Shown here in pieces: positions 2,319 through 4,414 of a DNA stretch of 32,000 nucleotides (positions are counted from its first letter, which is position 1; each line of letters begins with the position of its first letter). The position numbers and the translations under genes are program-made. Under the pieces are notes generated by a model that saw only the letters and a list, made by a program, of their open reading frames with translations, made no database searches and was not told the origin of the DNA. The DNA lies in assembly GCA_004284765.1 (NCBI GenBank), contig NQJD01000017.1:1-32000 (forward strand), given 5' to 3'. The DNA comes from Candidatus Electronema aureum (GTDB taxonomy: Bacteria; Desulfobacterota; Desulfobulbia; Desulfobulbales; Desulfobulbaceae).

Positions 2319-3977
2319 CTAAGAACTTCGTTTCATCAAATCCAATAACCTTACAGCTATATTGGATGTTCTCGACCATATTGAAAGATAACTGCAAATC
2401 CGACGCTTTTCGCCTTCAGTTTTAGCTATATTGAAAATAATTATGGCGATTATTTCATAAAATTCTTGTTGTTTATCAACAAAATCAACCCAAGAACGAA
2501 TTGCTTGAATTGTCAAATCGCTGGTCAACGGGATATTAAGAGAATTTCTTATAAGAAAGACTATCGAACTTGTAACTTGTTTCTCTTCTTTAGAGAAGAG
2601 CAGTAAAACTGGCCGCTGCACATTATTTGCAAAATTGGATTTACGCATCAATCTCCAGAAAATAATTAAACTTAATTTATGCAGTGAGGTCTTTGGATGC
2701 TGCTTTATCCATTCTTTGAGTGTATTTAATATGATTAAATTCCTTTCAGAAACCTTTTCTCCTATATCAAATAATTTTACTACCGCTTGCGCAATATCTG
2801 AAAACAGCCGTCCATCGCCTGATTGAGCAATTATCTTTAAATTATCCAGAGCCTGTTGAGGGAAAAGCAATCCTATATAATGACCATACGCAACTATCGC
2901 TGTCGAATTCAGGCGGAATGAATTCTTTAATCCACTCCAATGATGCAAAATATTAAATGCTTGTTGAGCTATTTTTTCATTCTCGTCGTAAGAAGCTACT
3001 ATAGAAAGTGCCAATGCAGTCAAACGTTGAAGAGATTGTTTTTCTGACTTGGCCCACGGCAAAAATATCTTTTCACGAACAGGACGGAATTCATATATTG
3101 CCAATTGTCCGGCAATTCCTGCGGCCCTTGATCGAACATCAGCACTTGAATGCTCGCCAAGTTCATATAACCACTGAAGCAGCGCATCCGCATAAGCATC
3201 ATATTCATGCCAAATATATCGTAAAAGAGTTGATGAGTCCTCCTGGCATTGAAACGAGACAATATCTATCTGGCCTTGCCCACATTCAGTTGATTCCTCA
3301 CCATCTGAAAGATAAGCGCGAATTTCTTTGAGCCAAGTGCTGCGTTTTTTTTCGTTGACTCTGATATCAAGATCATTTTCAGTTTTTTCTTTTGGCTGAA
3401 GAATAGATTGCAACTGACGACTGGTGTTAAGAACATAACGGTAATTGCAGCCTTCAAGGACTGCTAACGCAATCATAAAACTGCGGTCTTTGACGTTCTC
3501 ATGCTCGTCAAATATCTCTTCAATAGAAGAATCTGACCTTTCCTCGATATGTTTTCCTGAATCATCTCCATGAATAGCAGAACCAATTTTCTGGTTATGC
3601 CCGACAATATTTTGAGCACCTACATCGCATCCTGAAAAATGATTTCCTCCTTGATTATATATAGTTGTAGTGGAGAATAGCCCTTCAATACCAAGTTCTC
3701 TCGCCTTTTTGCTGAATTTGACAAGATACCTTAAAAAGGTTGCAAACTCCTTGTCTTCTCTTACCTCTTCATTGCCGTCAAGAAAACTTTTAGCTGCATT
3801 AAGCCCTTCTTCCTCTGAAAGAGGTTTGACAGATTCATCTGCATTGATATTTTGCTCAATGGAATCATTCTCACTATCTCGATTAGTTACAGATAAATCT
3901 TCGCTATCTGTAGTGCAAGATTGGTCGGCAGACTTCTTTCCATATTTAGAAGCATCAGAAAAGCTGTTATCGCTCAT
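2319..3977 (-). CDS. 552-aa protein: acidic disordered N-terminus, NIVGxNQ motif module, C-terminal alpha-helical repeat (ARM/HEAT-like) region; function unknown
   Basis: Long uninterrupted ORF in AT-rich DNA. Its ATG overlaps the upstream stop (ATGA at 3974-3977). I found no P-loop, nuclease or protease motif. The helical-repeat character of residues ~250-550 is judged from periodic hydrophobic and Leu/Ile-rich helices. Confidence 0.6.
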   Translation of the reverse strand: MSDNSFSDASKYGKKSADQSCTTDSEDLSVTNRDSENDSIEQNINADESVKPLSEEEGLNAAKSFLDGNEEVREDKEFATFLRYLVKFSKKARELGIEGLFSTTTIYNQGGNHFSGCDVGAQNIVGHNQKIGSAIHGDDSGKHIEERSDSSIEEIFDEHENVKDRSFMIALAVLEGCNYRYVLNTSRQLQSILQPKEKTENDLDIRVNEKKRSTWLKEIRAYLSDGEESTECGQGQIDIVSFQCQEDSSTLLRYIWHEYDAYADALLQWLYELGEHSSADVRSRAAGIAGQLAIYEFRPVREKIFLPWAKSEKQSLQRLTALALSIVASYDENEKIAQQAFNILHHWSGLKNSFRLNSTAIVAYGHYIGLLFPQQALDNLKIIAQSGDGRLFSDIAQAVVKLFDIGEKVSERNLIILNTLKEWIKQHPKTSLHKLSLIIFWRLMRKSNFANNVQRPVLLLFSKEEKQVTSSIVFLIRNSLNIPLTSDLTIQAIRSWVDFVDKQQEFYEIIAIIIFNIAKTEGEKRRICSYLSIWSRTSNIAVRLLDLMKRSS

Positions 3978-4414
3978 TTGAACCTGAATTTTTCCATTTT
4001 CTGTTCTCTAATCTCCTGATTACCTCCTACGATATTGACGGCATTGACGGTTGAGCCAGTGAAAATAATACCTCCCTTATCTTGAATAAGAGATGGTTGA
4101 AGGATATGTCTTATCTCTGCTAATAACTCGTTGTCCGTACTGAGCAGTTTATTTATTTGAAGACGCAGAGTCGCTTGCTTACCAAGATCGGAAGGATTAT
4201 CTGCAACATCCTCAGCCGCCTTTTTTATCTCATTTCCAGATTGCCCAGAACGAGAGGTAATCTTTGCCCAAAGAGCTGTTGCTTGTTCCAAAGCAGCAGA
4301 AGTCATCTTTTTTGAAACTTCTTCTAATGCCTGTCCTCCTCCTTTTGTGAGATATGGAATTGCTGGAGAAAGAACTACAACAGCCTCTTTGGCAAGTTCT
4401 ACAACGTCCATCAT
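3974..4414 (-). CDS. 146-aa helical protein ending in the NIVGGNQ motif; first gene of the AT-rich operon
   Basis: The ORF track starts at 4474. I prefer ATG 4414 (MMDVVELAKE...) because AAGGTGAG lies 4-11 nt upstream, and the 4415-4474 extension crosses the GC/AT boundary. The stop overlaps the next ATG. Confidence 0.6.
   Translation of the reverse strand: MMDVVELAKEAVVVLSPAIPYLTKGGGQALEEVSKKMTSAALEQATALWAKITSRSGQSGNEIKKAAEDVADNPSDLGKQATLRLQINKLLSTDNELLAEIRHILQPSLIQDKGGIIFTGSTVNAVNIVGGNQEIREQKMEKFRFK

Follow-up and report, generated by a model that had tools for sequence, protein, structure and literature searches.

A four-gene operon with a motif common to its first two proteins

The stretch of DNA analysed here, referred to throughout as the window, comprises 32,000 nucleotides of contig NQJD01000017.1 from Candidatus Electronema aureum, a cable bacterium of the class Desulfobulbia. 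Four closely packed genes on the minus strand of this window encode a small protein that is predicted to be helical (protein 1), a larger protein with a predicted alpha-solenoid (protein 2), an SPFH/Band 7 protein (gene 3) and a LysM membrane protein (gene 4). An earlier note, made from the sequence alone, had drawn attention to a Gly- and Asn-rich motif shared by proteins 1 and 2, and it is this motif and the two proteins that carry it that are described below. The features of the operon are the following.

3974..4414 (coding 3977-4414), minus strand: protein 1 gene, 146 amino acids, with a putative Bell-like helical executioner domain and a C-terminal motif
4094..4414, minus strand: protein 1 residues 1-107, a predicted helical bundle (Bell-like domain), hydrophobic in its N-terminal helix and acidic at residue 3
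4010..4075, minus strand: effector-side motif GGIIFTGSTVNAVNIVGGNQEI, protein 1 residues 114-135
2319..3977 (coding 2322-3977), minus strand: protein 2 gene, 552 amino acids, the putative receptor/sensor partner
3651..3977, minus strand: protein 2 residues 1-109, an acidic leader predicted to be disordered (1-47), then short helices (55-104), ahead of the motif
3585..3650, minus strand: receptor-side motif GGNHFSGCDVGAQNIVGHNQKI, protein 2 residues 110-131
2322..3530, minus strand: protein 2 residues ~150-552, a predicted armadillo/HEAT-like alpha-solenoid, the presumed ligand-sensing domain, with no P-loop NTPase
1334..2317 (coding 1337-2317), minus strand: gene 3, SPFH/Band 7 protein, 327 amino acids (Pfam Band_7, E=3.8e-5)
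655..1287 (coding 658-1287), minus strand: gene 4, membrane protein of 210 amino acids with a C-terminal LysM domain (Pfam LysM, E=1.4e-5)

Protein 1 is read from the ATG at 4414 to the stop codon at 3974-3976 and protein 2 from the ATG at 3977 to the stop codon at 2319-2321, with a 4-nucleotide overlap (ATGA) joining the stop of the first gene to the start of the second. The start of protein 1 was placed at ATG 4414 or 4411 and not at the upstream TTG 4474 or ATG 4447 because the N-terminus that follows, M-x-D and then a hydrophobic helix, is conserved in the family. The sequence of protein 2 is that of Ca. Electronema aureum CDV28_1174 (100% identity).

The motif is a tag and not a shared domain

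The motif was found in both proteins at the sites where the earlier note had placed it. The ranges given there (4010-4063 and 3585-3638) correspond to an 18-residue core that runs from F to I, with 11 of 18 positions identical; when the leading GG is included, GGIIFTGSTVNAVNIVGGNQEI of protein 1 and GGNHFSGCDVGAQNIVGHNQKI of protein 2 are identical at 13 of 22 positions. After shuffling of both proteins (n=200), the best ungapped 22-mer mostly had 7-8 identities and at most 11. BLASTP of protein 1 against protein 2 gave 15/35 identities with E=6e-6, a value that applies to a single comparison. A loose regular expression for the motif was used to search all six frames of the window, and the only matches in coding sequence were proteins 1 and 2, genes 3 and 4 being free of the motif; one further match fell in an unannotated frame (13152-13220).

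Each protein has a single copy, without pseudo-repeats. The copy in protein 1 had been described as the end of the protein, but another 11 residues, REQKMEKFRFK, come after it. The observation that the motif follows a helical segment in both proteins agrees with the structure predictions, which place a helix at residues 95-105 of protein 1 and helices at residues 90-104 of protein 2. In the AlphaFold2 (AF2) monomer models, the predicted local distance difference test score (pLDDT) is below 50 for the motif tail of protein 1 (residues 108-146) and for the motif stretch of protein 2 (residues 102-147), and the motif is thus predicted to be disordered in both. Particular residues are nevertheless strictly kept: G115 and G131 are invariant in a 25-sequence alignment of the protein 1 family, as are G110 and G111 in alignment A5 of the N-terminal regions of protein 2. 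Across 28 copies of the motif, Asn (3.0-fold), Gly (3.0-fold), Val (1.7-fold) and Ile (1.6-fold) are enriched over background, and Pro (0.07 of background), Leu (0.23) and Lys (0.52) are depleted.

Protein 1 had been taken for a free-standing copy of the N-terminal module of protein 2. This proposal did not hold up when the protein 1 family was aligned with the N-terminal regions of protein 2 in hhalign: 27 motif columns were aligned (E=1.1e-4) and the helical parts were left unaligned. What the proteins have in common is therefore a tag and not a module. A second, weak similarity was noticed between GNEEVREDK (protein 2 residues 68-76, 3750-3776) and GNQEIREQK (protein 1 residues 131-139, 3998-4024), with a BLASTP E value of 0.055; it may be due to chance or be the remnant of an earlier duplication.

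Protein 1 and its family

Bell proteins have been described as alpha-helical bundles of ~100 amino acids in which the N-terminal helix is hydrophobic and residue 2 or 3 is acidic; most are free-standing proteins of about 120-140 amino acids, and occasionally the domain is the N-terminal part of an NLR-like protein (Dyrka et al. 2020, bioRxiv 10.1101/2020.01.06.895854). The protein 1 family has the same traits, namely the helical bundle, the hydrophobic first helix, the acidic residue, the size and the occasional NLR-like fusion. The AF2 model of protein 1, made with family alignment A2, has helices across residues 4-105 with pLDDT values of 70-90. Asp occupies position 3, and residues 4-22 have a mean Kyte-Doolittle hydropathy of 1.37. 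Asp or Glu is found at position 2-4 in 151 of 172 family members, in which residues 4-22 are hydrophobic, and the N-terminal consensus of the family is MD..LA..LT.FLAP.LPYLLKAGEKA.

An exhaustive profile search with the protein 1 family returned 1613 clusters at E<=0.001 and 475 at E<=1e-10, and among the 150 matches listed most proteins are 130-170 amino acids long. The family domain is also the N-terminal part of larger proteins, where it is combined with NACHT and FGE-sulfatase domains (P0114, P0182) or with NB-ARC and TPR domains (P0164). The C-terminal tails of family members are diverse, and they include the ASGERSVAIGGNVSGSTIxTGD type, which is BASS6 in Dyrka Table S2, as well as a BASS9/10-type tail in P0149. 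No Pfam family matches protein 1 or its 24 aligned relatives, and scans of proteins 1 and 2 against Pfam, NCBIfam and PADLOC returned nothing meaningful, the yield being a weak match to ZorA (E=0.0018) and noise.

Another member of the family is encoded on plasmid3 of Aulosira laxa NIES-50 (L022 3968-8184). This protein, BAZ78632.1, ends in VIASGNNSVATSGSVSGIINTGDNN, and the product of the next gene, BAZ78633.1, is a 1206-amino acid STAND-like NTPase that repeats this tail motif in its N-terminal region, with FVPGERSVGVGGSISDSVIITGDNN at about residues 38-62. By sequence the two are a BASS6-like pair, and both are missing from Dyrka Table S2.

Protein 2 resembles an NLR-type receptor without its NTPase

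In its AF2 model, protein 2 begins with a disordered acidic leader (residues 1-47), after which come short helices (55-104), a second disordered stretch that holds the motif (102-147) and an alpha-solenoid (150-552) for which pLDDT mostly exceeds 90. The best Foldseek matches of the solenoid in the PDB were designed armadillo proteins and importin-alpha (E ~3e-4). No NTPase was detected in protein 2 by Pfam, NCBIfam or PADLOC, and its model holds helices and the solenoid only. NB-ARC, NACHT, TPR and WD repeats are likewise absent, so that protein 2 falls outside the definition of an NLR/STAND receptor.

Among 41 homologues of protein 2, every full-length one has a variant of the motif at the equivalent site, 65-110 residues from the N-terminus. 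The homologue P0040 from Chloroflexus aurantiacus (715 amino acids) has its motif at residues 66-87, followed by an nSTAND3-like NTPase and then by a solenoid homologous to that of protein 2; its score against Pfam nSTAND3 is 24.2 bits, just under the cut-off of 27.2. A homologue from a high-GC lineage, P0042, has the Walker A sequence GPDGVGKAS at the same place as the NTPase of P0040. Since these two proteins keep a STAND-type NTPase between motif and solenoid, protein 2 looks like an NLR-type receptor minus its NTPase. From the sequences, it looks as if the NTPase was lost in cable bacteria and cyanobacteria and kept in Chloroflexus and the high-GC, probably actinobacterial, lineage.

Cyanobacteria regularly have the protein 2 homologue in two parts, an open reading frame (ORF) of ~180 amino acids with the motif and a 355-amino acid ORF in another frame with the solenoid, the two abutting or overlapping. 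Given the many independent clusters of the 355-amino acid protein, this is a conserved split or a programmed frameshift and not an assembly error. The split genes are found at these positions.

L008, 4465-6068
L009, 3905-5568
L010, 3827-5568
L011, 3920-5541
L013, 3941-4836
L018, 1478-3081
L020, 1452-3076

Related loci keep the gene order and both motif copies

In the loci examined, a protein of 145-167 amino acids with the N-terminus of protein 1 and the motif at its end is encoded directly upstream of the protein 2 homologue. Downstream of the latter lie an SPFH-type gene, with a Pfam Band_7 match in most loci, and then a membrane-protein gene. This four-gene order was found in cable bacteria (L014, L015), cyanobacteria (L001, L003, L008-L011, L013, L017, L018, L020), Chloroflexus aurantiacus (L004, L005), L006 and a high-GC, probably actinobacterial, locus (L007). 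Across all orthologous loci examined the motif keeps to its two sites, while the linkers on either side are free to change in sequence and length. A scan of the genome collection with a narrower alignment returned 5 loci, all cyanobacterial, and a metagenome scan returned 7. No relative of protein 2 was detected in a scan of viral contigs, which therefore gave no sign of a phage-borne module.

The homologue of gene 3 is the third gene in every related locus that was read through. Gene 4 is conserved across loci in its N-terminal membrane part and variable in the TPR and LysM parts, of which cyanobacteria have one or both. In the window, a terminator-like hairpin with a T-run is present at 1293-1312 on the minus strand, in the 46 nucleotides that separate genes 3 and 4, and could be an attenuator of gene 4 expression. 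In a metagenomic Okeania-like locus (L021 959-1496), the protein 1 gene is degraded and the protein 2 genes are intact; a C-terminal ORF of 71 amino acids is left of the former, and its motif carries an internal duplication, HIGDVHKTGGVHI.

The two copies co-vary, and the motif moves between effectors

Co-variation of the two copies was tested with one representative for each of six clades, which allows 720 assignments of effectors to receptors. The cognate alignment scores were 65, 68, 112, 95, 38 and 89, and the true pairing was the single best of the 720 permutations (sum 467, compared with a mean of 231 and a standard deviation of 55). In five clades out of six, the protein 1 tail aligned with the protein 2 motif of its own locus with a score above any obtained between orthologous protein 1 tails of different clades (18-58); the exception was the actinobacterial pair, whose score of 38 does not exceed the cross-clade values. 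The cognate advantage is not expected if paralogous segments drift independently, and the two copies are therefore being kept matched. Pairs from three of the loci are given here.

Chloroflexus (L004): effector SGGVYFYGNTQIKGDVIGGDQTK, receptor SGGVFFNGNTQVGGDVIGGSQSK
L006: effector GGGVAFGSGSVVNSSGTISGRDV, receptor GGGVAFGTQSVVSNSGSIAARDV
High-GC, probably actinobacterial (L007): effector AGVVLSGDVRVYGDVAGRDI, receptor YGVYAEGSIRAQDVSGRDK

A locus of Okeania sp. SIO3B5 (L012) has, in place of the Bell-like gene, a gene (1772-2632) for a 286-amino acid protein of the PNP_UDP_1 phosphorylase family (E=4e-27). The C-terminus of this protein, YIDSIHIDRSPVSLKDGNIVRGNVN, matches the peculiar features of the motif in its own partner, YYYDSIHIKDSPVEIENGNLVRGDLN. 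This effector swap indicates that the motif is a portable connector that joins the receptor to whichever effector is present.

Comparison with known signalling systems

The earlier note had likened the motif to the Gly/Asn-rich segments of conflict proteins from actinobacteria and cyanobacteria. This link holds, and the segments in question are the bacterial amyloid signalling sequences, or BASS motifs (Dyrka et al. 2020, bioRxiv 10.1101/2020.01.06.895854), which are enriched in Gln, Asn, Gly, Val and Ile and depleted in Lys, Pro and Leu, and of which those that were tested formed fibrils and prions. The pair described here resembles the Bell/NLR pairs with BASS1-10 of that study in its small helical effector, whose N-terminal helix is hydrophobic and which is acidic at position 2-3, in a composition rich in Gly, Asn, Val and Ile and poor in Pro, Lys and Leu, in its filamentous or multicellular hosts (cyanobacteria, actinobacteria, Chloroflexus) and in the use of one motif on alternative effectors. 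It differs from them in that protein 2 has an armadillo/HEAT-like solenoid without NB-ARC or NACHT and without TPR or WD repeats, in that SPFH and membrane/LysM genes are always attached in the loci studied here, and in its host, a cable bacterium of the class Desulfobulbia. In style, the class nearest to the motif by eye is BASS2 (ISGGxFxGPVIQGRDI).

Among systems studied functionally, Bab/Agp with BASS11 is the nearest parallel to a receptor that has no NTPase. In this system the receptor motif converts the effector tail to amyloid, which leads to cell death and antiphage abortive infection, and proline substitutions in the motif abolish activity (Ibarlosa et al. 2024, bioRxiv 10.1101/2024.11.07.622273). 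Bab/Agp shares with the present pair a Bell-related executioner, a non-NLR receptor, a motif common to adjacent genes and a location in a defence island. In contrast, the Bab domain is shorter (~80 amino acids), and neither SPFH nor LysM partners accompany the Bab/Agp system. In HET-S/NWD2 (HRAM) and in RIPK1/RIPK3 with their RHIM, too, a receptor motif templates the prion-forming tail of an effector and an N-terminal membrane-targeting helical domain is activated, but these systems belong to other kingdoms and their motif sequences are unrelated. HET-S moreover has two pseudo-repeats, compared with the one copy in protein 1, and NWD2 is a NACHT-WD NLR. A literature search returned nothing that ties the Bell domain to SPFH, LysM or cable bacteria.

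Homotypic adaptor logic, with one copy on a regulator and one on its partner, had been suggested by analogy with effector-associated domains (EADs). EADs are globular helical domains; those of NTP-dependent conflict systems are reportedly the subject of work by Kaur, Burroughs, Iyer and Aravind in 2020. The logic itself stands, as a paired tag is found on effector and partner, is conserved, co-varies and persists through an effector swap; as with EADs, effector and regulator each bear a copy and are encoded by neighbouring genes. The family assignment was wrong: the common element here is a stretch of ~22 residues that is predicted to be disordered, and the helical parts are not homologous. 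An EAD pair was ruled out, since hhalign aligned the 27 motif columns only and no Pfam EAD model in the library gave a match.

A paired tag, probably of the amyloid type

We consider it very probable that the two motif copies are a pair of signalling tags by which the Bell-like effector is linked to the sensor. It is also probable, with more reserve, that the tags form a BASS-type amyloid signalling pair that couples the sensor protein 2 to the cell-death executioner protein 1. Amyloid-type templating in particular we regard as more likely than not. The earlier suggestion of a beta-strand augmentation or co-assembly tag thus pointed in the right direction, and was less specific than the evidence permits.

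Several observations weigh against this amyloid-type reading. Gln is neutral in the 28 motif copies (1.06-fold), which differs from the published BASS composition. No substring of the motif is present among the 346 pairs of Dyrka Table S2, and when the motif was compared by eye with BASS1-10, with BASS11 outside the comparison, no class fitted; the screen behind that table demanded a NACHT or NB-ARC neighbour and would therefore miss the present system by design. The receptor motif is internal in protein 2 (residues 110-131, after the acidic leader), whereas NLR-side BASS lie mostly in the first ~40 residues and in a few cases at 42-73 among the table entries compared here (Dyrka et al. 2020). 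Protein 2 lacks the NTPase that would drive oligomerisation. Since the motifs of the main cyanobacterial clade are all alike, the cognate partner frequently fails to score highest there. Membership of protein 1 in the Bell domain, whose founding proteins are ONI86675.1 and Q9RDG0, is strongly suggested by its traits, and indirectly by the BASS6- and BASS9/10-type tails of family members and by the Aulosira pair, and not proven. Foldseek provides no link to HeLo, MLKL or Bab: the protein 1 model had no PDB match at E<=0.001, with generic helical bundles as the hits and none of these three folds among them. A profile of the protein 1 family likewise found nothing relevant among PDB sequences. 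HeLo, MLKL and Bab-type folds differ widely in topology (Ibarlosa et al. 2024).

The main rival to amyloid templating is a homotypic adaptor in which the two copies form a finite, non-amyloid complex of fixed stoichiometry, such as a small beta-sheet, a hairpin or an augmented strand, and in which the effector is activated by release. Conservation, co-variation and the effector swap fit such a complex equally well, and it would account for a protein 2 that has no NTPase for oligomerisation and for a motif that occurs once per protein without pseudo-repeats. However, the composition of the motif, its length of ~22 residues and its position C-terminal to a Bell-like domain are like those of motifs proven to form fibrils or prions, and Bab/Agp, the one functionally tested system, uses amyloid conversion despite its non-NLR receptor. 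We therefore consider the finite adaptor unlikely, though it deserves to be taken seriously. Less likely than this, and in our view improbable, is a third component (the SPFH scaffold, the LysM membrane protein or a protease) that reads both tags as a docking or degradation signal. Genes 3 and 4 are conserved beside the pair in every locus, as this would predict, and lineage-specific evolution of such a partner could also produce co-variation of the tags within a locus. Yet two-gene pairs exist in the wider family, for example Aulosira BAZ78632/BAZ78633, where the next annotated gene encodes a STAND NTPase and not an SPFH protein, and the published Bell/NLR pairs are likewise two-gene systems. 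Neither gene 3 nor gene 4 has the motif, and a docking site for a folded partner is not expected to allow the joint drift seen between clades (cross-clade scores of 18-58).

A chance match between low-complexity segments, or a functionless relic of local duplication, might be suspected of a segment that is so short and so rich in Gly and Asn. This explanation is effectively refuted: the match exceeds all 200 shuffles, the motif occupies the same pair of sites in cable bacteria, cyanobacteria, Chloroflexus and the high-GC lineage while the linkers vary, the copies evolve in concert, and the motif is also carried by an unrelated effector domain (L012).

For the amyloid-type pair we infer the following mechanism, including amyloid formation, the direction of signalling, the attack on the membrane and what genes 3 and 4 do. 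The solenoid of protein 2 would detect a trigger, for example infection or envelope damage, and protein 2 molecules would then cluster, possibly on the SPFH scaffold and the LysM membrane protein, whose help in clustering may be needed because protein 2 has no NTPase. The clustered motifs of protein 2 could stack into a cross-beta nucleus with about one rung per motif. This nucleus would template the tail of protein 1, and the change of fold would free a hidden hydrophobic N-terminal helix. The freed helix would attack the membrane, with cell death as the outcome (abortive infection or regulated cell death). A more far-reaching proposal, which we put forward tentatively and consider unlikely to be right as a whole, is that the four genes form a self-contained, NTPase-free cell-suicide module with which filamentous multicellular bacteria (cable bacteria, filamentous cyanobacteria, Chloroflexus and probably actinobacteria) sacrifice infected or envelope-damaged cells. 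In such a module the periplasmic LysM protein and the SPFH scaffold would sense or organise the trigger at the membrane and supply the clustering otherwise provided by the NTPase of an NLR, and a BASS family that has yet to be classified would relay the signal from the armadillo (ARM)/HEAT receptor to the Bell executioner.

Genomic context

The operon has a GC content of 36-40% and its flanks one of 48-59%, with a sharp break at about 4480 when 1-4480 is compared with 4480-14000. The operon is compositionally foreign, and the break suggests horizontal acquisition. The following feature lies directly upstream of the operon.

4486..5460, minus strand: dnaE PHP-domain fragment, 324 amino acids (Pfam PHP, E=1.4e-56)

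Further remnants of the dnaE 5' end were found as 31 nucleotides with 97% identity (6138-6168) and 32 nucleotides with 94% identity (7995-8026), and a 37-nucleotide junction repeat is present at 4480-4516 and 7946-7982. The remnants at 6138-6168 and 7946-8026 bracket a gene for an OLD/GajA-like ATPase-TOPRIM nuclease (6121-7893, minus strand; PADLOC Old, E=1e-59), and the 3' end of this gene extends into a dnaE remnant. The interval between this nuclease and the PHP fragment contains a PIN-domain fragment (5467-5730) and a small antitoxin-like ORF (5903-6127). A related cable-bacterium contig (L014, 1-13638) has an intact dnaE preceded by three PHP fragments, with an AccI-type restriction-modification system and the same four-gene operon interspersed between them. 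These arrangements look like a hotspot at which defence cargo is inserted serially into the dnaE 5' end. The remaining genes of the window are housekeeping genes.

Implications

That amyloid templating can serve as a signalling switch is well established for fungi and mammals; in bacteria it has been demonstrated functionally in Bab/Agp only. The locus described here is most likely a system of this known kind, in which an executioner and a receptor communicate by amyloid signalling. It departs from published examples in its unclassified motif family, in a receptor of the ARM/HEAT type that lacks an NTPase and has the motif internally, in its obligatory partner genes (SPFH and membrane/LysM) and in having a cable bacterium as host. 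The motif family it adds lies outside BASS1-10 (BASS11 was not in the comparison). A receptor without an NTPase that has distant homologues with one offers a natural experiment on receptor oligomerisation, and the invariable linkage to SPFH and membrane/LysM genes hints at an input from the membrane or cell wall. The compact four-gene cassette could be studied in a heterologous host.

The system also provides a case from cable bacteria, a lineage without a Bell domain in the 2020 survey, in which 34 Desulfobulbia genomes gave no Bell match (Dyrka et al. 2020). The case is consistent with the proposal that amyloid signalling goes together with multicellular growth, and carries this link to a class beyond the Actinobacteria and Cyanobacteria that dominate that survey.

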